Shown here one piece after another: positions 2,457-61,159 of a stretch of DNA of 64,000 nucleotides (positions are counted from its first letter, which is position 1; every line of letters starts with the position of its first letter). The translations under genes and the position numbers were made by a program. This DNA comes from Pachysolen tannophilus NRRL Y-2460 (Eukaryota), in contig KV454013.1 of assembly GCA_001661245.1 (NCBI GenBank), positions 1,396,502 to 1,460,501 on the forward strand. Reading direction: 5' to 3'. The notes below the pieces were generated by a model, which did no database searches, was not told the DNA's origin, and saw nothing but the letters and a program-made list of their open reading frames with translations.

Positions 2457-4361
2457 ATGAGTTATAGAGGAAGAGGCGGAAGAGGCGGCAGATCTGGGTA
2501 TGGTAATGGTGGTGCTAATACGTTGCCGAATCAGTCGACTATAAACAATTTTGTGCAGCAGAATTTGATTCCCGTAGAGATTAAAAATTGGAATAATGCA
2601 ACAAAAGATGATCTTGTTTCATTTATAAGTAGGAAAACAAGAATATCATTACAACAAGTTTCGGTGGATCAATCCACTGGTGCTGTGATTGGGTATGTGA
2701 AAAATCAGAAGGAAGCTGAAGATTTATGTAATTGGACTGGAGTAAAATTTGCTGGTCAATCTTTACGTATAAATTTATCATCAATTAATAATGGATTAAA
2801 TAATTCAAATATTGGTATAAATCCAGGTACTTCATCAACAATTGATGCTTTAAAAGAATTTTTAAGAACAAGGTATAATCCTAATTTGAAAATGTTGGAT
2901 TTAACAAATATGATGAATGATCAAGTTTTAATGAATCGAGGATTATTAGGTAATTCAACAACTTCAAGTACTTCTTCAAAAATGTTTACAGCTTTAATGA
3001 AATTAGCTTCACAAGATATATCAATAATAGTAGAAACTGTTAATTTATCAAATAATAATTTTAATGATTTAAATTCAGGAATTTCAATTTTAGGTACAAC
3101 TTTCCCTCATTTATTAAATTTATCATTAGAAAATAATAAAATTTCAAAATTAAAATTTTTTGAAAATTGGAAAAATAAATTTAATAATTTAAGAGAACTT
3201 GTATTAATTAATAATCCAATTTCTTCAATTAATAATTATCATTTTGAAATTATGAAATTTTTCCCTAAATTAATATTATTGGATGGACAATATTTAAGAG
3301 ATGAAACAAAATTATTAAAAATTTATCAATTTCCAGTATTAAATACTCCAATGTTTTTCGAAAATCAAGAAATTCAAAATATTTCAACAAATTTTATTTC
3401 TAATTATTTAAAATTATGGGATTCAAATAGATTAGAATTATTACAATTATATTCATCACCAGAATCTCAATTTTCTTTACAAGTTGATACAACTGCTCCT
3501 TCAAAATTATCAAGTACAAGTTCAGAACATACTTCAAATTCATATTGGGCATATTATTTTTCAAATTCAAGAAATTTATTAAGAATTTCAAATGAAAGAT
3601 CAAGAATGTCAAGATTATTTAAAGGTTCTGAAAAAATTTCAAAAATATTTAATTCATTACCAAAGACAAAACATTCAATTTTAGAAAATCCAAATTTTTA
3701 TTCTATAGAAAGTTGGTCTTATCCACAAATAAATGGAATAATAATAACTATACATGGAGAATTTGAAGAAATTGGTATTCCAGAAACTACAAATGCCCCA
3801 TCTGGTCCAAGAAGTAATTCTCATTTTAGAGGCGGCCATTCAAATAATGCTAGAGGAACACTAGCAAAAAGATCTTTTGATAGAACTTTTGTTGTGGTTC
3901 AAGTACCAAATGGTTCAATGATTATAGCATCTGATTTGTTATTAATAAAACCTTATGCAGGTTATGAATCTTGGAATAGTAAAAATATCAATAATCCAAA
4001 ACAAGAAGTACAAGCACAGTTAAATCCTCAAGAGCCACAACAAATAAACATTAATAATCAAGTATTACCACCACCAGCTATAGCAGTGACTGGAACTCCA
4101 CCTCCAGGGCAACAACAACAACAACAACAACAACAACAGCAACAACAACGATCAATGCTATTACAACAGCAAGTTCCAAACGATATATTATCGAAATTGT
4201 CTATACAGCAGCAGCAATTACTAGCTAGGATCTTTGAAGAAACAAAGCTAAATGGAGAGTATTCGTTGATGTTGTGCCAACAAAGTAACTGGGATTATAA
4301 TCTGTGTTTACAAAGTTTTAAAAATTCACAAGGTAATATTCCACCAAGTGCTTATCAGTAG
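2457..4361 (+). CDS. MEX67: mRNA export factor Mex67 (RGG N-terminus, LRR, NTF2-like and UBA/TAP-C domains)
   Basis: FLRTRYNPNLKMLDL, LRR LSLENNKI/LRELVLINNP, NTF2 ITIHGEFEE/RSFDRTFVV/IASDLL, C-terminal TKLNGEYSLMLCQQSNWDY...IPPSAY. Confidence 0.95.
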   Translation: MSYRGRGGRGGRSGYGNGGANTLPNQSTINNFVQQNLIPVEIKNWNNATKDDLVSFISRKTRISLQQVSVDQSTGAVIGYVKNQKEAEDLCNWTGVKFAGQSLRINLSSINNGLNNSNIGINPGTSSTIDALKEFLRTRYNPNLKMLDLTNMMNDQVLMNRGLLGNSTTSSTSSKMFTALMKLASQDISIIVETVNLSNNNFNDLNSGISILGTTFPHLLNLSLENNKISKLKFFENWKNKFNNLRELVLINNPISSINNYHFEIMKFFPKLILLDGQYLRDETKLLKIYQFPVLNTPMFFENQEIQNISTNFISNYLKLWDSNRLELLQLYSSPESQFSLQVDTTAPSKLSSTSSEHTSNSYWAYYFSNSRNLLRISNERSRMSRLFKGSEKISKIFNSLPKTKHSILENPNFYSIESWSYPQINGIIITIHGEFEEIGIPETTNAPSGPRSNSHFRGGHSNNARGTLAKRSFDRTFVVVQVPNGSMIIASDLLLIKPYAGYESWNSKNINNPKQEVQAQLNPQEPQQININNQVLPPPAIAVTGTPPPGQQQQQQQQQQQQQRSMLLQQQVPNDILSKLSIQQQQLLARIFEETKLNGEYSLMLCQQSNWDYNLCLQSFKNSQGNIPPSAYQ

Positions 4362-4796
4362 TAATAATACTTGATTTCAAAAATAATACAAACAATTATT
4401 TTTCTAAAAAAAAAATAATAATAAAATATTAATATGTCTCGTTAACTCGTATATAGTCTAATAAAAAGTGAGAGTAAAAAGTTTTTTATTTGTTTATAAA
4501 ATAAACTGTCATTGTATATATCATTTTTTAAAATGTTTTCAAAAATTCAATATTTATTCATTTATATTGAACCCACCTTGGAGTCAAAGAAACTCATCAT
4601 AAAAAATAAAAAAAAAATAATCTCTAAAGAAAAATTCTATTCTTTAATTCAACTAAGGCTAAGTGACCATTTGAAATTAAGGAACGCCCAGCTCAACTTC
4701 AAGAAGAAATAATAATAATAAGTAAATAAAAATAATTTAAAAATAGTCAAGCCTATCAATTTCACTTCCAACCTCGATATTTTTGTAGGGAAGTAT

Positions 4797-4916
4797 TCAC
4801 GCAATAACACAACTGTAAGTAGTCAAGTACTTGCCATCGTAAAGAGCATTGTCAGCATTGTCCTTGTTCTTTTCAGATGGAGCAGCAGTTGAAATAAGTG
4901 GGTTTGATGGTTGCAT
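4797..4916 (-). CDS. MFA: a-factor-type mating pheromone precursor, copy 1 (39 aa)
   Basis: Translates to MQPSNPLISTAAPSEKNKDNADNALYDGKYLTTYSCVIA*. It has an MQPS start, an AAP..EK..KDN pro-region and a CVIA CAAX box, as in S. cerevisiae Mfa1. A near-identical second copy lies at 6143. Confidence 0.93.
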   Translation of the reverse strand: MQPSNPLISTAAPSEKNKDNADNALYDGKYLTTYSCVIA

Positions 4917-6142
4917 TATTGTTATATTTAAATAATTTAAAAGAATGTATTTTTTATATCTTTTTCCTTTAGTTGTTTAATAATTTATTTTCAACGTATG
5001 AACATTGTTTGTGATCAACAATGAGGAACATGATTCTTATTTATACGTTCTTCATTTTCGGCTTGTGTAAGTTTTACTTTATCCCTTCCACTTAACTTAG
5101 TATGATTTTTCTATTTCCCTGAGATTGGATGCATATTAGTTTCATTTAATTTAACTTTAACAAGATATCCCAACCAACCTTTAAAAGTGTTTGGATCAAA
5201 GGAATATAAAATCTTTCATGCTGGAATATTATATTATAACCTCAAAAACTTTTTACCTTATATATATGATGTTTGATTTAGTGATGATTAATTGATATGA
5301 AACAAGGCTTCTTCAAACAAGCTTTTATCTTCACCTCTCTGTCCTTAGCTATCTCTTTACTCATTCAGAATCAATTTGCAAGCATAAAAGCTTGAAACGA
5401 TTCTTTACAATGTTTGAAAGATAATTTGAAATGAAAAAATGAAATTTCCTCATTAGGACAACACAATTGAATTTTGTTGTAGTGGAGATGCATGATTATG
5501 CATACGAATCATAATATGGTAAATTCTAAATAACAAATACAGATGAGAATCTAATGTTATCATCGACAACAAAGTATAGAGGAAAAGTTTAGATTTCTAA
5601 AGAAAGTTTTTAAGAATTTGAGGTAATTAACTTCTATGGTTTCCAATAATTTAGAATAAAATTGCATTTTTTTTAAAAAAAAAAATTAAAAATATATATA
5701 TTTTTTTATTATTATTATTGTGGAAAAAGAGAAGCAAAGTATTAAACTTGAGGATTTATAATGTACATTAATTTAGTCAAGATTGATGTAAATGTAATAA
5801 TAAAAACAAAACTTAGATTTAATTAATTTTTCAAAAAATTCCTCTTGAAGATTAATTAATTCCAAGTTTACACTTGAATGAAAAAAAAAAAGCGGAAAAG
5901 GGATTTCAAATCAAAACTAAGTGGATTCATCAAATTGATTAATCAAAGCCCTTGCAAAGGCAACAAAACAAGAAGAATGAAAACAATATAAATAAGACAG
6001 TAATCTTCATCAAATAAACAGAAAAAAAAAGAAAAAATAGAAACTATTCTTTACTTTCTTTATCATTCATTATCATCATATAGACTCAAAACTCTTTGAG
6101 CATACTTTTAAACTATTCCAACTATTTTTCTAGAATTCAAAC
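4917..6142. promoter_or_regulatory. Shared divergent promoter of the two MFA genes
   Basis: Mcm1-type TTTCCTCATTAGGACA at 5445-5460; PRE TGAAACA at 5298-5304 and near-PRE TGAAACG at 5393-5399; HMG-like ACAATG at 5407-5412 and ACAATT at 5463-5468; TATAAATA at 5038-5045 (minus) and 5987-5994 (plus). Confidence 0.7.
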
Positions 6143-6262
6143 ATGCAACCATCAAACGTTATTATTTCAGCTGCTGCTCCATCTGAAAAGAACAAGGACA
6201 ATGCTGACAATGCTCTTTACGATGGCAAGTACTTGACTACTTACAGTTGTGTTATTGCTTAG
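6143..6262 (+). CDS. MFA: a-factor-type mating pheromone precursor, copy 2 (39 aa)
   Basis: Translates to MQPSNVIISAAAPSEKNKDNADNALYDGKYLTTYSCVIA*. Identical to copy 1 from residue 11 onward; ends in the CVIA CAAX box. Confidence 0.93.
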   Translation: MQPSNVIISAAAPSEKNKDNADNALYDGKYLTTYSCVIA

Positions 6263-6319
6263 ATATGATGTCTTTGCTACAGTATAGGGTGGTTTTACTA
6301 CATTTCTATTTCTTTTTTT

Positions 6320-8112
6320 TTTTCTTTATGATCACTTGCAACGTGATTACTGACGAGGGGCAGGAAAAACGTCTTTTTTAATTACAAATTTCTTATTACT
6401 TACTATTTTTATTTTTTTCTTAATTACAATCTTTTAATCATTTTTAATTTAAATCTTAAAAAAAAATTTTTTTTCTTTATTTCTTTTAAGATTACATCAT
6501 GTAGAATCATTGACTGAGTAAGGTTCTTAATACATTTAATTTTCCACAGGTTCACCTCAAAAATTTATTTATAAATATATTGAATAGCAAATCTAGAGGA
6601 CTTAATGAATATTGTATTGCTTTTACAGATACATAAAAACCCACTTTTTTTTTATAAGTTATGTTCTTTGCGGGAAATAAAAGATTGATCGGAAGATTAA
6701 ATTGGATAAGCTTAGACTTCCAATCAGCTTATTGTTAGACAATATTCAATATAATAATATAATTGTATAATAAAATAAAAAAAAAACTCTCAACTCAACT
6801 CTACTCAACCGGCGGTTAAAAGAGGAAAGTAGTGCTTTAAATCACATAGTAAAAACACTAACAAATTTTTCTTTTTTCTTTTAATTTTGTCTTGTTTAGG
6901 TTTATAACAGAAAACCAGCAACTTGTTTATTTATATATTTATTTATATACATAAAATAAAAATTTTGCTTAGTGAAAATCAATTATTGTTTAATGTGGGC
7001 TTGAACCAAGCAAAGAAAAAAGTTTACTTGAATGTATTGTTCCAAGTAAACTAGACCAAACTACGGGAATCCTTGTAATAATAGTTAAGTGGAATTTATT
7101 TTTTTTATTCATGATAATCAAATATAATAATAGTGATTACAATATTTGATTATCATGATTTTTTTTTTTATTTTNNNNNNNNNNNNNNNNNNNNNNNNNN
7201 NNNNNNNNNNNNNNNNNNNNNNNNNNNNNNNNNNNNNNNNNNNNNNNNNNNNNNNNNNNNTTTTCTTTATGATCACTTGCAACGTGATTACTGACGAGGG
7301 GCAGGAAAAACGTCTTTTTTAATTACAAATTTCTTATTACTTACTATTTTTATTTTTTTCTTAATTACAATCTTTTAATCATTTTTAATTTAAATCTTAA
7401 AAAAAATTTTTTTTCTTTATTTCTTTTAAGATTACATCATGTAGAATCATTGACTGAGTAAGGTTCTTAATACATTTAATTTTCCACAGGTTCACCTCAA
7501 AAATTTATTTATAAATATATTGAATAGCAAATCTAGAGGACTTAATGAATATTGTATTGCTTTTACAGATACATAAAAACCCACTTTTTTTTTATAAGTT
7601 ATGTTCTTTGCGGGAAATAAAAGATTGATCGGAAGATTAAATTGGATAAGCTTAGACTTCCAATCAGCTTATTGTTAGACAATATTCAATATAATAATAT
7701 AATTGTATAATAAAATAAAAAAAAACTCTCAACTCAACTCTACTCAACCGGCGGTTAAAAGAGGAAAGTAGTGCTTTAAATCACATAGTAAAAACACTAA
7801 CAAATTTTTCTTTTTTCTTTTAATTTTGTCTTGTTTAGGTTTATAACAGAAAACCAGCAACTTGTTTATTTATATATTTATTTATATACATAAAATAAAA
7901 ATTTTGCTTAGTGAAAATCAATTATTGTTTAATGTGGGCTTGAACCAAGCAAAGAAAAAAGTTTACTTGAATGTATTGTTCCAAGTAAACTAGACCAAAC
8001 TACGGGAATCCTTGTAATAATAGTTAAGTGGAATTTATTTTTTTTATTCATGATAATCAAATATAATAATAGTGATTACAATATTTGATTATCATGATTT
8101 TTTTTTTATTTT
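6320..8112. repeat. ~850 bp direct duplication (about 6320-7174 and 7261-8112) either side of an N-gap (7175-7260); probable scaffolding artefact
   Basis: By eye, the two copies differ only in homopolymer lengths, and both abut the gap. Confidence 0.85.
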
Positions 8113-9272
8113 AAACCTAAACTAAATTTGATCATCAAAGATCAATATTTCCGTTTAACTTAGCGATATATTATAAGAATAAGTAATATAAAAAAAAATT
8201 TAAAGATCGATCGAGGATCATTAAAAAATCAATATCAAAATAAAAGAAAAAACCAAACTAACTGACTGCATTGGCGCATTAAAGAGATTCAAAATAAACC
8301 TGATCCCCCACCCGATTCATGCGTAGTTGGTGTGGAAACCATTAGAAAAATAACAATTTTTTAAAAGTTCGATCTTTACTGGTTTTTTTGAGAGCCAACG
8401 TGTTTTTTCAAAAGAGCTTAACCCTCGGAGGGCTTCCCAATTAGGAAAAATGTAAATTTTAAAAATTTTATTTTTTTTTATTTTCCCTTTTCTTTAGTAC
8501 TTCAAATTTTTCCAATTGTGCATACAAACACGCTAAAAAAAAACAGGATTTTACTAGATAAGTTTTGATCTTGAAAATATAATTAATCTGAGATTAAAAT
8601 CTTTTTTGGAAATTTCCTTTTTCTTCTTTTTCCAATTGTAATGATAAGCCTTTCTCTTTTAAAAAGTTTGCTTAATTGCTTGTAAATCACCCAATCATTT
8701 AAATCAATTACAAGGTTTTTTTTTTCAAATTCTTTCTTTCTTTAAGAGACGGCTGGTTTTTAGTACACAATAAAAAAAATGGTAGAATATAATTATGCAT
8801 GTTAATGCGGGCGTCTGCCTTTGTATCTGCAATAAGCGAAACTTAATATTTTGATTTAGATCAAAATACGATCTTAAAAACCAGCCATATGCATTAATAG
8901 GTCTATTTCTTGCAGTTGAGCCCAGATTTCCGTGACGCGCAATCAGATTTTTTGTTCAATTGGCGAACAATTTCCAGTTATAAACAAATTGAATCCCAGC
9001 CATCTATCTAGCTTTAAGATTTGTTAAAAGCCTTTTGCGAGAAATTATTAAGTAAAAAAAGTCTTTGTTCGGGCTCAATCATTCGTTTAATTATACAGGA
9101 AAGAGTAATATAAATAAACTCTTGTTCCCATCATCTCGAGTTTATTAAGAACAATCCGACAATCAAAAGAAAAGAAAGAGGTTTGTCTTTTTTTTTTACT
9201 TCTTCTTCTTTTTGTTTTTGTTTTCAATTTTTTATCAATTCAATTTTGTGAACTAAAAATAAAAACGGAAAA

Positions 9273-11534
9273 ATGAAGTATTCAGTACTAGTAGCGTTGG
9301 CCGCAACATTTCAATTATCCAAGGCAGCTCGTGCGGAAACACTTACTCCAACTGAAGCAGCTTCTTCAGACGTTTCTTCTTTAGCTTCGTCTTCTTTAGC
9401 TTCATCTTCATTGGCTTCATCTTCATCATATGTTTCGGCTCCATATTTTTCGTCTTTATACAGAGCGTCTTCATACGCACCATATTATTCAAATCAGTCA
9501 ACAACAACAACTGATGTTACCACAATAATAACAGAAACAGACGAAGTTACAGTATATGATTATACTCTGGTTGAGTATATTACTATAACCAGTACTTATA
9601 GTTCAGATTCTTCATCAGTTTCAGCAACAGCTTCAGGTATAGCATCAAATTCCCTGTCTGCAGCAGCAGCAGCAGCAGCTTCTTCTTCTGCTTCTGGCTC
9701 ATCTGCTACTACAAGCAGTGGTTCAGATAGCAGCTCAGACGTTAGTGCAACAAGTACTCTTGGACCAGCAGCTCAGGTTACATCCTCTTCAAGTGGCGTT
9801 ACTGCTACAGCAGCAGCATCAGCTTCAGGTTCAGCTTCAATCACAAGTGGATCATCTTCATCTTCAACTGATGACAGCACTACTACTTATACCATATTCC
9901 TTACAACTTATACTACTATAACAGATTGTAACTATTATGGTACATGTACAACTTATACTCAAGAAATTATTGGTGAATCAGCAGCTACTTCAACTTTGTC
10001 AAACGGTAGTGTTGAAGGTACTACCACATACTACACAGTTGATGTTTCCGGTTCTTCTACTTCTACTGTCTCAGGCAGCTCAAGCTCAAGCTCAAGCTCA
10101 AGCTCAGGCTCAAGTGAATCATCATCATCATCATCAACTGAAAGCTCTGCTAATGCTATTGGTCTGGCTAACACTCTGACATCGTCAACTGCCACTGGTG
10201 CTGCCACTGGAACTTCAACTGGTTCATCAACTGATGCTTCAACTGGTTCTTCCACTGATGCTTCATCTAGTTCTTCTACTGATGCTTCAACTGGTTCGTC
10301 CACTGATGCTTCATCTAGTTCATCCACTGATGCTTCAACCGGTTCTTCTACTGATGATTCAACTGGTTCATCCACTGATGCTTCAACTGGTTCATCAACT
10401 GGTACCGCTTCAGCTACTGACTCTACAAGTGATGCCTCTACCACTGGAACTGGTTCAGCAGCAGCAGCAGCAGCAGATGCAGGAGAAACTTCAACTACAA
10501 CAATCACTTCAGTTTCAGGTTCCTCAACCAGTGTTATTACAAGTGTTGTTGTTGACCCAGAAGAAAGTACAACCACAGTTACTGTTACTCATTGTCTTAA
10601 CGATGTTTGTATCACTGAAACTTCAACTGGTATAGTTTCAGTTACCACCGAAACTCTGTACGGTACAACTACCATCTACACTACTGTTGTTCCATTGAGC
10701 ACTGAACTGCTGGAATCTTCTGGAGTTACTGTTTCCGGTGCTACTTCATCAACTGCTTCATCAACTACTTCATCAGCTACTTCATCAGATACTGCTGCCG
10801 CTGCCGCCGCCGCCGCAGCAGCTACAACTTCTGCTACAACTTCTGCCACAACTACTGCAGCTGCAGGTGGTGTCAGCACTGTAATTGATTTGGAAGAACA
10901 AACTACTACAGTTACTATCACCAGCTGTTCAAATGATGTTTGTACTACCGGTACTTCCACAGGTATTGCATCAGTTGTTACTGAAACCGTCTTTGGTACA
11001 ACTTATATTTACACAACTGTTGTTCCAACTTCTAGTACTCAACTGGCAGTTGCAGCTGAAACCAGCACAGGATCTTCTTCATCATCATCATCTTCATCTT
11101 CATCTTCGTCATCAAGTGAAGCTGAATTGACCACAGTTCCAGTTGCTTCAGGTACTACTATTTACGATATCGTCAGTGAAGAATCAACAGAAACAATCAC
11201 TATCACTTCTTGTTCAGGTGGTTCATGTTCATTAGTTACTTCCACAGTAACTTCATCTTCATCCAACACTGCAGCAGCAGCAGCAGGAGCAGGAGCAGCC
11301 GGTACTACTACAACTTCTTACACTTCTACTACTGAGACAACAAGTTCTTCTCTGACAATTCAAACACTCTTGACTTCTTCTATCTACGGTAACTCAACTA
11401 GAAACTACACAGTTTATAGTTCATCAACAGTTGCTCCAGAAGTCGTAGATTCTAACTTAGGTAACAAGATGACTTCAAAGAACTTAGCTACAACTATTGT
11501 TGGTTTAGTTCTTGGTCTGGCCCTCATGTTATAG
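9273..11534 (+). CDS. GPI-anchored Ser/Thr/Ala-rich cell-wall adhesin/flocculin-like protein
   Basis: Signal peptide MKYSVLVALAATFQLSKA; flocculin type-3-like CX4C repeats (TVTHCLNDVC, TITSCSNDVC, TITSCSGGSC); DAST(G/S)SST tandem repeats; hydrophobic GPI signal at the C-terminus. Confidence 0.88.
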   Translation: MKYSVLVALAATFQLSKAARAETLTPTEAASSDVSSLASSSLASSSLASSSSYVSAPYFSSLYRASSYAPYYSNQSTTTTDVTTIITETDEVTVYDYTLVEYITITSTYSSDSSSVSATASGIASNSLSAAAAAAASSSASGSSATTSSGSDSSSDVSATSTLGPAAQVTSSSSGVTATAAASASGSASITSGSSSSSTDDSTTTYTIFLTTYTTITDCNYYGTCTTYTQEIIGESAATSTLSNGSVEGTTTYYTVDVSGSSTSTVSGSSSSSSSSSSGSSESSSSSSTESSANAIGLANTLTSSTATGAATGTSTGSSTDASTGSSTDASSSSSTDASTGSSTDASSSSSTDASTGSSTDDSTGSSTDASTGSSTGTASATDSTSDASTTGTGSAAAAAADAGETSTTTITSVSGSSTSVITSVVVDPEESTTTVTVTHCLNDVCITETSTGIVSVTTETLYGTTTIYTTVVPLSTELLESSGVTVSGATSSTASSTTSSATSSDTAAAAAAAAAATTSATTSATTTAAAGGVSTVIDLEEQTTTVTITSCSNDVCTTGTSTGIASVVTETVFGTTYIYTTVVPTSSTQLAVAAETSTGSSSSSSSSSSSSSSSEAELTTVPVASGTTIYDIVSEESTETITITSCSGGSCSLVTSTVTSSSSNTAAAAAGAGAAGTTTTSYTSTTETTSSSLTIQTLLTSSIYGNSTRNYTVYSSSTVAPEVVDSNLGNKMTSKNLATTIVGLVLGLALML
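10214..10402 (+). repeat. 24-bp intragenic minisatellite encoding DAS(T/S)(G/S)SST, about 7-8 copies
   Basis: Repeated ACTGATGCTTCAACTGGTTCxTCx units, visible in both DNA and protein. Confidence 0.9.
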
Positions 11535-11633: not shown

Positions 11634-12110
11634 ATATTATTTTAATCTTTTATTTTATTTTTTATTTTTATTTCAAATATTTGTTTATTCTTCTTCGGCA
11701 AGTGATTTGTTTATTATCTTTCAGTCAAATCACAANNNNNNNNNNNNNNNNNNNNNNNNNNNNNNNNNNNNNNNNNNNNNNNNNNNNNNNNNNNNNNNNN
11801 NNNNNNNNNNNNNNNNNNNNNNNNNNNNNNNNNNNNNNNNNNNNNNNNNNNNNNNNNNNNNNNNNNNNNNNNNNNNNNNNNNNNNNNNNNNNNNNNNNNN
11901 NNNNNNNNNNNNNNNNNNNNNNNNNNNNNNNNNNNNNNNNNNNNNNNNNNNNNNNNNNNNNNNNNNNNNNNNNNNNNNNNNNNNNNNNNNNNNNNNNNNN
12001 NNNNNNNNNNATATTATTTTAATCTTTTATTTTATTTTTTATTTTTATTTCAAATATTTGTTTATTCTTCTTCGGCAAGTGATTTGTTTATTATCTTTCA
12101 GTCAAATCAC
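11634..12110. repeat. ~100 bp direct duplication (11634-11733 and 12011-12110) flanking the N-gap at 11736-12010; probable artefact
   Basis: Identical sequence on both sides of the gap. Confidence 0.85.
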
Positions 12111-28934: not shown

Positions 28935-31295
28935 CTACTCTGTTATTTTCCAAGTTGGAAGCCAGTTCAAGTATTTATACTCTGTATGTGGCTTGTCCAT
29001 ACCGAATGAGATTGGACTAAAGTAAATAAATGTCCCAACAACGGCAATATAAAATACAACATAAGAGGCACCGATTAAGATTTGATTTCTTAACAAATCT
29101 GTGGTCCTTTGGAAGACGTAGCAACATACAATCATTGCAAAATAAAGGGCAGGCAAATAATGATGAACGTATGTGACTCTTGACATGATAACAAATGGAA
29201 GGAAATGGATGAACCAACCAAGGAATGGATATACACCTCCCATTAAAAATAAGTTTTCTTCATTTTGAGAATGGAAAATAGGAACTTGACGTTGATATTT
29301 GATCAAATTAACAACAACTAGTAATGAAAACAGTAGCACCAGTACAGTGGAAGTCCAAGTAGTGGCAGGCGAACCCATCAAGTAATATTTGATAGTGTCA
29401 TCGGCCCAGCTACATAACCTGATACCAACGTGTAATGTTGGCCATTCCCATGCTTTTGAAGCCAAGTTATCTAATTTATCTGGGTCTGGAACTAACGCGT
29501 TATTAGTAGCCATCATTGCTAAATTAAGTTGAATAAAATCTTTTAAAAAATTTGTTCTTGGAAGTTTAAAATCTTCTGGAGGAGCTGGCAAATTTGGATT
29601 TGTATGATCTTCAACATTCCACCAAGTTCTTTTGTCTCTTCTGAAAGGATTATCTACACATACAACCTCACCTTGCCTAAAACCCCATGCTGGTAAAATA
29701 TTTCCCGTGGTACTTAAGTAACAACCAAGAACTTTTGATTTTAATCTGAAAGATGTTGTCAATGGATGTAATCTTTTCTTATCTTCTTTACCGTATTGAT
29801 CAACAATTTCAACAATCCAATCATCCTTTTCATCTCCAATAGTTTCATTACCATAACAACTAACTTCCCAACCGCTTTTAGAAACAGGTGGTTTTAAGAA
29901 ATGAGTATGTAAATTTCTTCCAGTCATAACATGTTGTACTCTTACAGTGGAACCTTCAAGAATATATGCCAATTCATCGTTTAAATCAGATCTATCAGTG
30001 GTTCTTCCAAATTCAAATTTCCAATCATTGTTACTATCCTTATGTGAATAAGTAGTAACTTGTTGTTGAAGTGAACCATATGGATAACCTTGAACATGAG
30101 AATGTAACAAACCACCACCTAAACCTTGATTTTTAATTGTGAGTATAGAAGAATCGGTAACAATTTCTCTTGGTCCACCACCAACTTCTGAACCAATCAA
30201 ATTAGCTTGAAACAACGAAGACATGTTTGCATCTCCAGAACCTGTTCCATAAAGTAAATCAAAATGAATCTTAAAAGAGATCAAGAAAACACCAAATGGA
30301 ACCAAGATTAAAGCTGCAATTCTAGCTAACCAGTGTTGAGCATATTTTTGATAGGATAAATTTCTATCACCAAACATTATCCATAATTCAACAATTGTAT
30401 AAACACCAACTACCGAAGTAATAAACAAACCAACCATTTTAACGGAACATACACAACCCAAGTTGATACCAGTTAATAATATCCATTTCCACCATTTTCT
30501 AGAAAACAGATTACCTGGTTTTTTATTCTCATTATGAAATTTAATAAAACAGTAAAAAGAAGTAACGGTGAAAAATAATAACAATGAATCCAAAAGAATA
30601 AATTTACCTAATGTAACAAATGAACTTTCAAATAACACCATTAAAGTAAATAACCAAGTTGATTTTCTATTAAATCCAATTTCCTTCATGGTAAAATATG
30701 CCAATGGAACACACAAGGCACTGAAAATAGCATGGAAGATTCTCATCTTCACATAATCAATGTAATCTGGGTAAGTTTCTCCTGATGGGAAATCCCATGA
30801 ACCGTTATAACCTGCCAAGTAACCTGAAAATCCAATCAACATTTTCAGCAAAGGAGGATGAACATCATGGTAAAAAGAATGGTTCAAATAATACGAACCA
30901 AATTTTCCAAAATGAGCTTCATCCCAAACAACTTTATTATTTGCTCCAATCTTGTATAATCTTGTAAATAATGCTACAGCAGTGAAAGCTATTGGCAGTG
31001 CAATCGATTCAAATTTATACCAACAATTGCACAATTCAGCATTGGTGTCAAATGTCACGTCACTCAAATTGTCTATTTGTTTAAGCTTATCTTTGACTTC
31101 AAGATCGGTAATCACCTCTTCTTCTTCTTCTTCTTCTTCTTCTTCATTATCATCATCTTCTTCCTCGTCATCATCTTCCTCGCCAATACCAGCTTTTATA
31201 TCTTTATTGTTTAGTACATCGTCATCAGAATATAATGCATCCACCTCGTGAGCCTTCGGTTTCTTATTCGCTGACCTCAATCTTCTTTGTGGCAT
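28935..31295 (-). CDS. PMT2: Dolichyl-phosphate-mannose:protein O-mannosyltransferase, Pmt2 subfamily
   Basis: [26 protein letters not shown] domains [28 protein letters not shown]. Confidence 0.95.
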
Positions 31296-48703: not shown

Positions 48704-50368
48704 CTATATAGTTGATAAATTTAAAATTTTGTTTAAATAAATCACATCTTCAACTGCTTTTGCCAATTGATTTTTATTAATATTTGGATATATTTTTTTG
48801 TTATTATTATCAAATTTTTTCTTATTATTTGAAGTACCACCAATTATATTTACAAAACCAAAACTTTCAAGACTACTTATAACTTCTATGAATTCTGTTT
48901 TTTTCAAATGACCAATTAATTTGTCTAAACTTACTTTTGTCTTATAATATTGATAAAATTCATTAATTGATCTATCCTTTATTTGAAATTGCTCTTCTTC
49001 AAATCTTATTAATGAGCATAAAGTTGTCTTTTGTTGTAAATTTAAAATTTTTAATTTATTTATTAATAAAATATCATTACAATTACCACTGTTATTATTT
49101 CCAAATAATGAACTACAAACTTTTGCAATAATGGCAATTGAAACTTTTGGTGCTTCAAATATTGTTAATTTTTCAAAATCTTGTTTTGATAATTTTGATC
49201 TTGTCATATCTTCAACCATTTCTAATGATTTATGACAAATATCAAATGCTTTTCTTAAATCTCCTGTATTAACAGCAACTTTTTTAGAACATAATTGTAT
49301 AGCAGCTGGATGAATTAAGGGTATTTCCAGTTTTAATAAATCATCATTTTTGGGTAATTGTAAAAATAAAGATTGTAATTTAAAAATTATAATTTGTTTA
49401 ATTTGTTCTGAATTATATGGTAAAAATTGTAAAATTTTTGGATTAACATTATTTGTTTTCAATCTTGGTAAAAATCTATCAGTTAAATCTAATGCATTTG
49501 AAATTCCAATTAATATTAATTTTGTATTTTTATTTTTAGCATATGAAAATAAATCAAATAAAATTGTTTGATTTTTAGTTATTAAATTATCTAATTCATC
49601 TAATATTACTATTGAAATATCAGCTATTTTATCATCTTTTAAAAAAATTGATAAATCTTTTGAATTATATTTTTCATTTTTATAACAATAATTTTTGTTT
49701 AAAATTTTTTTCAAAATTTCATCATATATATTTTCAGGATTATTTATTATCATACAATTAATATTAACAAATGCCACACGGCGTTGAATAAAAGTTTTTC
49801 TTATCTTATCATAAAGTTTCAAATCTTTAATACAAGTATCTTCATCCTTATTCTTCATATAACTTTGTAAGATGGAATTGACTTGAGCAGTTTTACCTGT
49901 TCCAGGTGGACCAGATATATATAAAGAATTTGAAGTTAAATTTATAATATTCGATTCAATAAATTCTTTTAATCCATTTGCTTCTATTTCTCTTGAAGGT
50001 AATATACAATCATCTGCAGATAAGTTCAATTTTGAACCTCTTTGAAATAAAGATTTTGCTTCTGTATAAATTGAAAGTGTTGATAATGATTCATTATTAA
50101 AAAATTTCACTCCATTTTTTTTAATAGGTGTCGTTGGTGGTGATAAAAAATTTAAATTTTTCTTTGATGATTCTATTGATTTTAAATCCCCATTTTTAAG
50201 TAAAACAACTCTGTTCTTCTCAGGTGTTGTTGGTGGAGTTGCAAAAGAATTGATGAGAATGTTATCCCTATTTGAAAATTTGGAACTATCTTGTAATACA
50301 TTGTTTAATTTTGTTCTTTTACAAGGACTATCCAAATTACTTGATGATCTTTTATTTCTAATTGTCAT
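48704..50368 (-). CDS. CDC6: Replication initiator Cdc6
   Basis: N-terminal CDK sites (TPEK, TPIK), SLYISGPPGTGKT, VILDELD, IGISNALDLTDRFLPRL, TGDLRKAFDIC. Confidence 0.95.
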   Translation of the reverse strand: MTIRNKRSSSNLDSPCKRTKLNNVLQDSSKFSNRDNILINSFATPPTTPEKNRVVLLKNGDLKSIESSKKNLNFLSPPTTPIKKNGVKFFNNESLSTLSIYTEAKSLFQRGSKLNLSADDCILPSREIEANGLKEFIESNIINLTSNSLYISGPPGTGKTAQVNSILQSYMKNKDEDTCIKDLKLYDKIRKTFIQRRVAFVNINCMIINNPENIYDEILKKILNKNYCYKNEKYNSKDLSIFLKDDKIADISIVILDELDNLITKNQTILFDLFSYAKNKNTKLILIGISNALDLTDRFLPRLKTNNVNPKILQFLPYNSEQIKQIIIFKLQSLFLQLPKNDDLLKLEIPLIHPAAIQLCSKKVAVNTGDLRKAFDICHKSLEMVEDMTRSKLSKQDFEKLTIFEAPKVSIAIIAKVCSSLFGNNNSGNCNDILLINKLKILNLQQKTTLCSLIRFEEEQFQIKDRSINEFYQYYKTKVSLDKLIGHLKKTEFIEVISSLESFGFVNIIGGTSNNKKKFDNNNKKIYPNINKNQLAKAVEDVIYLNKILNLSTI

Positions 50369-50639: not shown

Positions 50640-50699
50640 ACGCGTCAAGAAACTGAAAATTTTTGTGAAAAATTATTTCCTGATTAGGAAGTAACGCGT
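50640..50699. promoter_or_regulatory. MCB-ECB(Mcm1)-MCB module upstream of CDC6
   Basis: ACGCGT at 50640-50645 and 50694-50699 flanking TTTCCTGATTAGGAAG at 50676-50691. Confidence 0.7.
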
Positions 50700-58417: not shown

Positions 58418-61159
58418 TTATTTATCTTCTGGATCAGAGGTGATTTTGAACATCTCATCATCGTCTTCATCTAGACCGTTAAACGAATTGTATAGCCTTT
58501 CCCTTTCTTCATCATCCTTACGTTGGTATTCTTTGGCGTAATTTTTCTTTAAAGTTGGAAGTTTTGTATTTTCTTTTTGTTGTTGTTGTTGTTGTTGTTG
58601 CTGTTGCTGCTGTTGTTTCTTATCTTGCTGTTCAGAACCTTTCAGTGCAGGTTTTCCCTTCTTGATAAACGCATCGTCTTCATTGGCATCCAAATCAAAG
58701 GAATCGTTGTCGTTGTCGTTGATATCATTGGCATCACTTCTGAACGGATTTTGCAATGTATTCATATCATTAGGATTATTAGAACTACTATCATCTGTAG
58801 TTTCTTCTTCACTGTCATATTCATCTTCTGGTTGAAGTATATCAAACTCAAATTCGTCTCTTCTTCTACGGCGTCTATTTTTATTACTTGACTTCATCAA
58901 GATGTATAAACATACAACGAAACCAATGACAAATAAAAAGAATAAGTATTCGACAGTATGACCATGATCCGTACTATGTTGGAACTTACCAGTTTCCTCT
59001 GATTCATTGTTTTCTCCATTTTCCAGATCGTTTACCGATGTATCTTCATCAGAAGTACCTGAACCTAATGTAGCCAGTGCTTCCTCAGTTGATTTAGTGG
59101 TAGTAACAGCAGATGTCGTGGAGAGAGAAGTAGTAATTTCAGAAGTCGTTTCTGTTGTAGTAGAAGAACTAGAAGTAGTGACAGTAGCTGCTATTGAGGA
59201 AGAAGAAGAAGATGATGATGGCGATGATGAAGATAATGTAGCATATACTATTGTTTGTGTTGTTGAGAGTGAAGTCTGAGTTGATGTTGTCAAATACACA
59301 TCAGGATCATTTTCATGACCTGGAAGAGGGAATCTTTTAGCCTTTGATGGATCAATACATTCACCAAAAAATTTCAATCTCCAATCTCTAACATTGATTT
59401 TAGTATTATCAGTTCCAGACACTTCCAACTCCCAATCACCTTCTCCTGATTCACCCCAATGAGCAACACTCATAAAAGTCCAATCTTGAAACCCATCTCT
59501 GGCTTCATCAAGTTTCCTGAATGGAGCTAATTCAGATACTATTCCAGATGGAGAAGTTAATTTCACTTTAACTTTACCTCTTATATCAGCATCAATATTC
59601 ACAGTAACAGTAACTTGTTCAAGACTTTCTACATTAGCATCTTCTAATTCCTCTCTCTTGACAACAGTTTTAGTTGTCACCGAACCATCATTTTCAATCT
59701 GTTGATTAACCGTTGTTAATGGAGCATAATACCAAGCCTGTGGTTTGAGATTTGTCCAATTTTTTGCCATTTCAACAATTGCGTAAGCATCAATTTTACC
59801 AAACCCATATTTATGAGAATATCTTTTACTTATAGCAGTATTTTGCCAACTACCATCTTGACTATTTACCTCAACAGAGCTTAATACTGAAAGGTATTGA
59901 ACATCTCTCCAACTCAACTGTGGATTAGCTTCTAAAACTAAAGAATAAATACCCGCCGCCAAAGGAGCTGCAGCTGAAGTACCACCATGACGATTTGTAC
60001 ATGATCCTTTTATATCTCCAGTATTAACAAACTCTCCAGAACCTGATGAATAAGTTGTTACCAAGACAGCTGAACATGATTCAGCATAAGGTGGATGTAA
60101 GCCTTTATGATCTATAGCACTCACTGTGATTGAATATATGCTATTTGTATATCCATCAAAATTACAATTATCACCATGAAGTCCTCCATTACCACTGGCA
60201 AATACATAAATAGCACCCTTTTTATCCCTACCATCTAAGACACCTTTTATGATAGCGCTTTTAACTATAGTGTCAGGTGCTTGCATTGATTTTCCATCAT
60301 CCGGAGGACCCCAAGAGCATGAATAGATATCGTTAACATCTAACCCGTAGATTAACGCTGCAGCCTCATCTTCGGAAGTGATCTGAGCAGACAAAATTCT
60401 AATTCCCGATACTTTTGAATTATATGCAACGCCTACTCCACAGTAATCATTTCCCTTTTCTGCAGCAATTTCAGAGGCACATCTAGTACCATGATAATCA
60501 TCATTTAATTTAGGTTTTGGTAATTTTTGGTTATCATTGAAATCCCAAGATCCTTCTTCACAAAAGGCCCTTGATAAATCTCTACTCTCATAATCTAAGC
60601 CATCATCAACTATAGCAGTGACAACTCCTGTACCAGTTATTCCATTGTACCAAACACCTGTTACATTAATATCGTGTCCCGGAAATGAAGGATTTAACAA
60701 ATGCCATTGTTTTTCGAAAAGAGGATCATCTATACCTAACCTTTTCTCAGCATCATAAATTTTTTCCATAGATTTATCTTGAGCAGGATATCTCTTGTAT
60801 AATTTTCTCGGTGGAAGTAAAGATAAAGATTTTAATTTTGAATCTATTAACCCATTGTATAATTCACAATCTCTTTTCATTAAAACATGATCATTATTAT
60901 TTATATTCCCTAATAATTTTGAATGTTCATGCTCTTTCGGTATAGAAAAAACATAATAATCAGATAACCCACGAGCGGAATGTTCATAAGTGAAATTTGT
61001 AAAAATTTCTTTAAAACTGGTCATCTCATCAATATTTGAAAACTGTACTGCAAAATAGTCTTTGGAACTATAATCTCTTTCAGGAATCTTCATACATCTT
61101 GACAACGAGCACCATAGCAATGGAATTATTAGCACCAGATGTAATAACGTCAAATTCAT
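58418..61159 (-). CDS. KEX2: Kexin (Kex2) proprotein convertase
   Basis: AIVDDGLDY, HGTRCASE, YSCSWGP, HGGTSAAAP, P-domain WTFMSVAHWGE, Ser/Thr stalk, TM helix and acidic tail. First ATG at 61159. Confidence 0.97.
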   Translation of the reverse strand: MNLTLLHLVLIIPLLWCSLSRCMKIPERDYSSKDYFAVQFSNIDEMTSFKEIFTNFTYEHSARGLSDYYVFSIPKEHEHSKLLGNINNNDHVLMKRDCELYNGLIDSKLKSLSLLPPRKLYKRYPAQDKSMEKIYDAEKRLGIDDPLFEKQWHLLNPSFPGHDINVTGVWYNGITGTGVVTAIVDDGLDYESRDLSRAFCEEGSWDFNDNQKLPKPKLNDDYHGTRCASEIAAEKGNDYCGVGVAYNSKVSGIRILSAQITSEDEAAALIYGLDVNDIYSCSWGPPDDGKSMQAPDTIVKSAIIKGVLDGRDKKGAIYVFASGNGGLHGDNCNFDGYTNSIYSITVSAIDHKGLHPPYAESCSAVLVTTYSSGSGEFVNTGDIKGSCTNRHGGTSAAAPLAAGIYSLVLEANPQLSWRDVQYLSVLSSVEVNSQDGSWQNTAISKRYSHKYGFGKIDAYAIVEMAKNWTNLKPQAWYYAPLTTVNQQIENDGSVTTKTVVKREELEDANVESLEQVTVTVNIDADIRGKVKVKLTSPSGIVSELAPFRKLDEARDGFQDWTFMSVAHWGESGEGDWELEVSGTDNTKINVRDWRLKFFGECIDPSKAKRFPLPGHENDPDVYLTTSTQTSLSTTQTIVYATLSSSSPSSSSSSSSIAATVTTSSSSTTTETTSEITTSLSTTSAVTTTKSTEEALATLGSGTSDEDTSVNDLENGENNESEETGKFQHSTDHGHTVEYLFFLFVIGFVVCLYILMKSSNKNRRRRRRDEFEFDILQPEDEYDSEEETTDDSSSNNPNDMNTLQNPFRSDANDINDNDNDSFDLDANEDDAFIKKGKPALKGSEQQDKKQQQQQQQQQQQQQKENTKLPTLKKNYAKEYQRKDDEERERLYNSFNGLDEDDDEMFKITSDPEDK

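Follow-up and report, generated by a model that had tools for sequence, protein, structure and literature searches.

A head-to-head pair of short genes in Pachysolen tannophilus that probably encode a-factor-type pheromone precursors

A 64,000-nucleotide (nt) stretch of the Pachysolen tannophilus NRRL Y-2460 genome (assembly GCA_001661245.1, contig KV454013.1, positions 1,396,502 to 1,460,501 of the forward strand; hereafter the window) carries two open reading frames (ORFs) of 120 nt, copies A and B, which are arranged head to head with a spacer of 1226 nt between their ATG codons. On their sequence features, these are most probably duplicated MFA-type genes, and the precursor that each encodes would give an a-factor of 13 or 16 residues carrying a farnesyl group and a methyl ester. 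A preliminary description of the window had reported two 120-nt ORFs on opposite strands, 1226 bp apart, and had taken them for the a-pheromone genes of this species. Our reading of the window and the ORF listing confirm the former claim, and the latter is supported, in that all the sequence-level features of such a precursor that could be tested here are present.

The ATG-to-stop ORFs (at least 20 residues, standard code) encode MQPSNPLISTAAPSEKNKDNADNALYDGKYLTTYSCVIA (copy A) and MQPSNVIISAAAPSEKNKDNADNALYDGKYLTTYSCVIA (copy B). Each is a single exon of 39 codons whose start is the first ATG downstream of an in-frame stop codon, with an A at position -3. Neither contains a CTG codon, so that the peptides are the same whether CUG is decoded as Leu or as Ala. 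The two copies differ at eight of their 120 nucleotides. Between copy A and copy B, codon 6 changes from CCA to GTT (Pro/Val, all three bases changed), codon 7 from CTT to ATT (Leu/Ile), codon 10 from ACT to GCT (Thr/Ala) and codon 39 from GCG to GCT, which is synonymous; the stop codon is TGA in one and TAG in the other, two bases being different at an unchanged position. The three amino-acid differences, at residues 6, 7 and 10, are thus all in the N-terminal extension, and residues 11-39 are the same in both copies. At the nucleotide level the copies form the arms of an inverted repeat (Table 1) with an exact 88-nt core (4801-4888 = 6171-6258) in which all synonymous sites are included. Over the adjoining 10-300 nt, ungapped identity is 0.23-0.45, as compared with 0.29 expected from base composition, and a MAFFT alignment reveals no convincing likeness beyond the repeat arms. 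This coincidence of the repeat with the ORFs, between flanks that are alike only at random level, is more than chance.

Both peptides end in CVIA directly before the stop, despite the different stop codons. The window contains 16 ORFs of 15-100 residues that run from a Met to Cys-x-x-x-stop, seven of them with aliphatic residues at a1 and a2 under a loose rule; among these seven, only copies A and B are intergenic, the other five overlapping long ORFs. An Ala at the X position of a CAAX box favours farnesylation. Upstream of the box, two Asn-Ala pairs could serve as processing sites, Asn20-Ala21 at 16 residues to the Cys and Asn23-Ala24 at 13 residues to the Cys. Srikant, Gaudet and Murray selected a-factor candidates by requiring fewer than 100 residues, a stop immediately after the CAAX box, multiple copies with a mature part more than 85% identical, and an Asn placed 5-20 residues before the Cys and followed by an uncharged residue (bioRxiv 10.1101/2021.09.28.462209). 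Every one of these stated properties is found in the window ORFs, whose mature part is 100% identical. The preprint also describes a differing N-terminal extension joined to an identical mature part as the pattern of a-factor genes (bioRxiv 10.1101/2021.09.28.462209).

We propose the following route to the mature pheromone, modelled on Mfa1 and Mfa2 of Saccharomyces cerevisiae and Komagataella phaffii. Cys36 of the CVIA box would be farnesylated by Ram1/Ram2, the VIA tripeptide would be taken off by Rce1 or Ste24, and the new C-terminus would be methyl-esterified by Ste14. The N-terminal extension would then be trimmed twice, by Ste24 and subsequently by Axl1/Ste23 after an Asn, which would yield either ALYDGKYLTTYSC (a 13-mer, cut after Asn23) or ADNALYDGKYLTTYSC (a 16-mer, cut after Asn20). 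Export of the lipopeptide would require an ATP-binding cassette pump of the Ste6 type, and the lipopeptide would be sensed by Ste3 on cells of the opposite mating type. We infer all of these biochemical steps, as well as the exact N-terminus, by analogy.

The S. cerevisiae precursor Mfa1 is described as cut at T7/A8 and at N21/Y22, with the lipidated Cys at C33 followed by VIA and the mature dodecamer YIIKGVFWDPAC (PMC2134810). The window genes resemble S. cerevisiae MFA1 and MFA2, which are redundant, in the layout of the precursor (extension at the N-terminus, then the mature part, then CVIA), in being two in number and in their predicted cleavage after Asn; their mature part is unrelated in sequence to YIIKGVFWDPAC. 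The S. cerevisiae MFA genes are unlinked, unlike the divergent pair in the window. The window peptides begin with MQPS and contain AAP-x-EK and KDN, and these three motifs and the CAAX box are common to the Mfa1 precursor as quoted in the preliminary description.

A close parallel comes from K. phaffii, which is among the nearest named relatives by Mex67 (49%) and Pmt2 (67%). Two MFA genes of 40 amino acids, overlooked by annotation, are reported for it, with proposed cuts after EDN or ADN; they were validated by RNA sequencing, deletion and synthetic peptide, and their double deletion stops mating of a-cells (Heistinger et al. 2018, PMC5993090). Like them, copies A and B are two short, unannotated CAAX genes (39 residues here) with few residue differences between copies, and ADN occurs in the precursors of both yeasts, an Axl1-type cut being proposed after xDN. 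The K. phaffii copies lie on separate chromosomes, are 63% identical and have four differences in a 17-residue mature part (PMC5993090), unlike the putative window genes, which are arranged divergently across 1.2 kb and share one and the same predicted mature part of 13 or 16 residues.

Searches for homologues returned little for either peptide. PF17317 (MFA1_2) was the sole Pfam family found at E<=10, residues 10-39 and 9-39 being aligned with model positions 6-34 and 5-34 of 34, and PF08015, the basidiomycete-type fungal lipopeptide mating pheromone family, gave no Pfam match at E<=10. The nearest ESM-Atlas cluster, of 34 residues, carries PF08015 on 22% of its members (score 0.86; 195 and 192 of 256 features in common). 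The PF17317 match and this cluster are weak leads in favour of an a-factor. Exact look-up of both peptides in a collection of 15 billion proteins found neither, and when metagenomes were scanned with a degenerate version of KYLTTYSCVIA there were 0 matches. The absence of both peptides from the protein collection that contains this organism's Pmt2 means that the genes are missing from its gene set there; the preliminary description had noted that such genes are routinely missed by annotation.

Several of these results, together with two from the promoter region given further below, weigh against copies A and B being a-factor genes. The PF17317 matches are non-significant, at 7.8 bits (E 3.6) and 6.6 bits (E 8.8) for a gathering cutoff of 25; with scores under the cutoff, the ORFs are placed in a functional class only, outside that Pfam family. 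The Atlas score is below the threshold of 0.9, and a family suggested in this way is probably wrong when only one of the ten best matches carries it. A word-index search of 5.8 billion cluster representatives, with the peptide plus two upstream window codons as the query, found no protein of 22-72 residues sharing three 5-residue words, and phmmer found no homologous short protein among 1.84 billion representatives. Two phmmer matches were rejected as homologues, being long repetitive proteins that align to the low-complexity residues 8-33. Synteny is equally silent: no a-factor-like ORF stands beside MEX67 in nine yeast metagenome loci, where CAAX ORFs of 20-70 residues were sought and two unrelated ones turned up. 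These nine (L001-L009, 36-45% identity, yeast-like) are the best of 68 Mex67 metagenome loci, the other 59 (distant fungi, 25-38% identity) being outside the scan. Lastly, the mature peptide predicted here has a higher polarity than that of S. cerevisiae, with a mean hydropathy of about -0.15 (13-mer) or about -0.45 (16-mer) versus about +0.7, as computed by hand from Kyte-Doolittle values.

Such results raise the question of whether the product of the ORFs could be a small prenylated peptide or protein that has some function outside pheromone signalling. CAAX boxes are indeed carried by many non-pheromone proteins, and Pfam detects no significant homology to known a-factors. The known CAAX proteins of this kind, however, are folded (Ras/Rho GTPases, G-gamma, lamins), whereas the window peptides have 39 residues, a hydrophilic extension and Asn sites. 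The identical C-terminal part with a variable N-terminal part follows the pattern described for a-factor genes in the 2021 preprint, and MQPS and the CAAX box also occur in the Mfa1 sequence quoted in the preliminary description. We consider this alternative very unlikely.

Another explanation would be that the repeat arose by duplication of something non-coding (a small RNA gene, a regulatory element or the remnant of a mobile element, for example), in which the ORFs are incidental. In DNA of 30% GC, 39 consecutive codons without a stop are hardly exceptional (about 4% by our estimate), and as the two copies are not independent, the open frame counts only once as evidence. Yet the boundaries of the repeat fall at the ATG and the stop, the TGA-to-TAG change leaves the stop in place, and a three-base change is kept within one codon. 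Codon usage is also gene-like in this frame only: with 23 long ORFs from the window as the training set, the log-odds scores are +10.2 and +13.3 bits in the reading frame but negative in each of the other five (-7.3 to -44.0), and these positive scores are reached by 2.2% and 1.3%, respectively, of 2464 intergenic stop-free 39-codon windows, a background that includes windows overlapping both ORFs. No Rfam family was detected in 4300-9300 at E<=1, and a tRNA scan of the window found none. With the full set of a-factor precursor features present in the peptide as well, a non-coding origin is highly improbable.

Public genomic contigs over 4000-7200 bear on the number of copies. In four of four runs the 88-nt core forms a contig of its own, about twice as deep as its neighbours (48.8 vs 24.4 in X1, 307.6 vs 170.8 in X2, 128.4 vs 71 in X3 and 259.8 vs 120.9 in X5), which fits two identical-core copies in the genome, contig depth not being a formal copy number. 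No variants were found inside either ORF among these four runs. That copies A and B are genuine MFA-type genes but silent or redundant relics, the working a-factor being encoded elsewhere, perhaps by more divergent copies, is extremely unlikely in view of the intact ORFs, the TATA elements, the identical mature parts and this doubled depth of the core.

The synonymous sites of codons 11-38 are all identical and the promoters show near-random similarity. This contrast suggests that the identity between the two putative a-factor genes stems from gene conversion over short tracts, or from a recent conversion event, rather than from purifying selection acting on the peptide only.

The divergent intergenic region contains both promoters. 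Each holds a 22-nt element with TATAAATAAGA that is oriented toward its own ORF; the two elements agree at 18 of 22 positions (82%), and the 11-mer of the TATA element has two occurrences in the window, both of them here. Between the promoters, about 530 nt from the ATG of copy A and about 685 nt from that of copy B, lies a match to the Mcm1 P-box, TTTCCTCATTAGGACA, followed by ACAAC ACAAT, which we take to resemble HMG/alpha-box cores. Allowing up to two mismatches, the P-box palindrome is found three times in the window, against 0.13 expected, and none of 100 shuffles reaches three. As a hypothesis drawn from these motifs, the site at 5445-5460 could be a candidate common cell-type control element for both genes. 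The first of the two adverse points announced above is that the Mcm1 and HMG assignments depend on assumed consensus sequences. The second concerns TGAAACA, a weak heptamer resembling the Ste12 pheromone-response element: it is common, with 19 occurrences in the 64-kb window and one in the intergenic region, and because of these 19 copies it carries little weight.

Table 1. Coordinates (window positions) of the two putative a-factor genes, the inverted repeat and candidate control sites.
Feature	Position	Strand	Details
a-factor-type precursor gene (putative), copy A	4797-4916	minus	39 codons + TGA; peptide C-terminus CVIA
a-factor-type precursor gene (putative), copy B	6143-6262	plus	39 codons + TAG; peptide C-terminus CVIA
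Divergent intergenic region	4917-6142		1226 nt; both promoters inside; window reading
Inverted repeat, left arm	4794-4921		128 nt, 92%; copy A + 3 nt past stop + 5 nt before ATG
Inverted repeat, right arm	6138-6265		128 nt, 92%; matches extent of copy B
22-nt promoter element with TATAAATAAGA	5035-5056	minus	TATA start 129 nt upstream of copy A ATG
22-nt promoter element with TATAAATAAGA	5976-5997	plus	TATA start 156 nt upstream of copy B ATG
Mcm1 P-box-like site TTTCCTCATTAGGACA, then ACAAC ACAAT	5445-5460		consensus scan, <=2 mismatches
TGAAACA, Ste12 pheromone-response-element-like heptamer (weak)	5298-5304	plus	motif scan

The other two P-box-like matches are outside the intergenic region. 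One, at 50676-50691, stands between two ACGCGT sequences, its distance upstream of a CDC6-like gene (48704-50368, minus strand) being about 310 nt. A P-box flanked by two such MCB-like sequences is the arrangement expected of a cell-cycle-regulated CDC6 promoter, and the position of this match suggests that in this organism matches of this kind are genuine Mcm1 sites. The remaining match, at 8433-8448, is about 830 nt upstream of a gene for a Ser/Thr-rich wall protein.

An MFA pair is expected in a sexual budding yeast, and the gene class, its processing pathway and the logic of screening for it are all established; the pair changes no concept. According to the 2021 preprint, 332 Saccharomycotina genomes were screened and a-factor candidates were found in 238, and the 32 singleton species of the screen were left out of its homology filter (bioRxiv 10.1101/2021.09.28.462209). 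The window genes may already be listed there, and copies A and B would very probably have been picked up, provided that this genome belonged to a multi-species phylogroup. Pachysolen, CUG-Ala, Nakazawaea and Peterozyma are all absent from the main text of the preprint, its species tables and supplement being outside this check (bioRxiv 10.1101/2021.09.28.462209). Fragments of either peptide were not found in the literature searched, and the literature on mating and pheromones of P. tannophilus, judged by titles and the openings of abstracts, contains no report of its pheromone genes. A fuller claim, namely that a-factor genes are here defined for the CUG-Ala clade for the first time, with an unusually polar, Tyr-rich lipopeptide, a bidirectional Mcm1 + HMG cell-type unit and gene conversion confined to the mature part, is tentative and, taken as a whole, rather unlikely.

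Genes for a-factor are among those most often absent from yeast annotations, because gene callers pass over ORFs of this length and rapid divergence defeats homology searches. If copies A and B are such genes, they would complete the pheromone-receptor parts list of a xylose-fermenting, inversion-switching, CUG-reassigned yeast. They would likewise offer a testable lipopeptide-Ste3 pair for studying the co-evolution of pheromone with receptor and of Ste6 with its substrate, as well as a data point on the concerted evolution of gene copies.

The decoding of CUG in this host can be read from the window, whose G+C content is 29.8%. The database Pmt2 of this organism (P0123) differs from the table-1 translation of 28935-31295 (minus strand) only at the three of three covered CTG codons, each of which is Ala in the database entry. 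Among 119 aligned Pmt2 homologues, CTG column 100 is Ala in 80, column 150 is Gly in 115, and column 652 is Gly in 58 and Ala in 45, Leu occurring at none of these three columns in any homologue. Column 263 is variable (Ala in 9 of 119) and column 655 is mixed (Val 40, Leu 30, Ala 20); the sole CTG codon of Mex67 is also at a variable position. In the long ORFs (15112 codons), CTG is used 79 times vs 29 for CTC and 57 for CTA. Together, the database residues of Pmt2 and the homologue columns indicate that the organism reads CUG as Ala and that the public annotation uses that code, which is the nuclear code of P. tannophilus. The species is described as having an invertible MAT region, whose inversion is reportedly induced by nitrogen depletion, and as one of five species in the CUG-Ala clade (PMC6692504); in a sexual yeast with an invertible MAT, a working pheromone system is expected.

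By Mex67, the nearest named relatives are Komagataella (49%), Candida arabinofermentans (47%) and Kuraishia (44%), and by Pmt2 they are Komagataella (67%), Kuraishia (65%) and Ogataea (63%), with one further relative at 71%. The homologue search found no public Mex67 entry of this organism, the best match overall being 53%, though its Pmt2 was found.

Several neighbouring genes deserve mention. MEX67 (2457-4361, plus strand) and copy A have their 3' ends facing each other, with 435 nt between the end of MEX67 and the copy A stop. On the other side, the next gene (9273-11534, plus strand) encodes a 753-residue Ser/Thr/Ala-rich protein with a hydrophobic N- and C-terminus and Flocculin_t3 repeats, and its product could be an adhesin or a sexual agglutinin adjoining the putative pheromone genes. 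At 58418-61159 (minus strand) there is a Kex2-type proprotein convertase (Peptidase_S8 + P-domain), of the class that processes alpha-factor; its linkage to the MFA pair shows no sign of being more than coincidence.

Two runs of N in the assembly lie in this part of the window, each flanked on both sides by the same sequence: the run at 7175-7260 by 6320-7174 and 7261-8112 (855 nt, 99.6%), and that at 11736-12010 by 11634-11733 and 12011-12110 (100 nt, 100%). These flanks look like unmerged contig overlaps at scaffold gaps rather than real tandem repeats, in which case copy B and the next gene would in truth be about 940 nt closer together.

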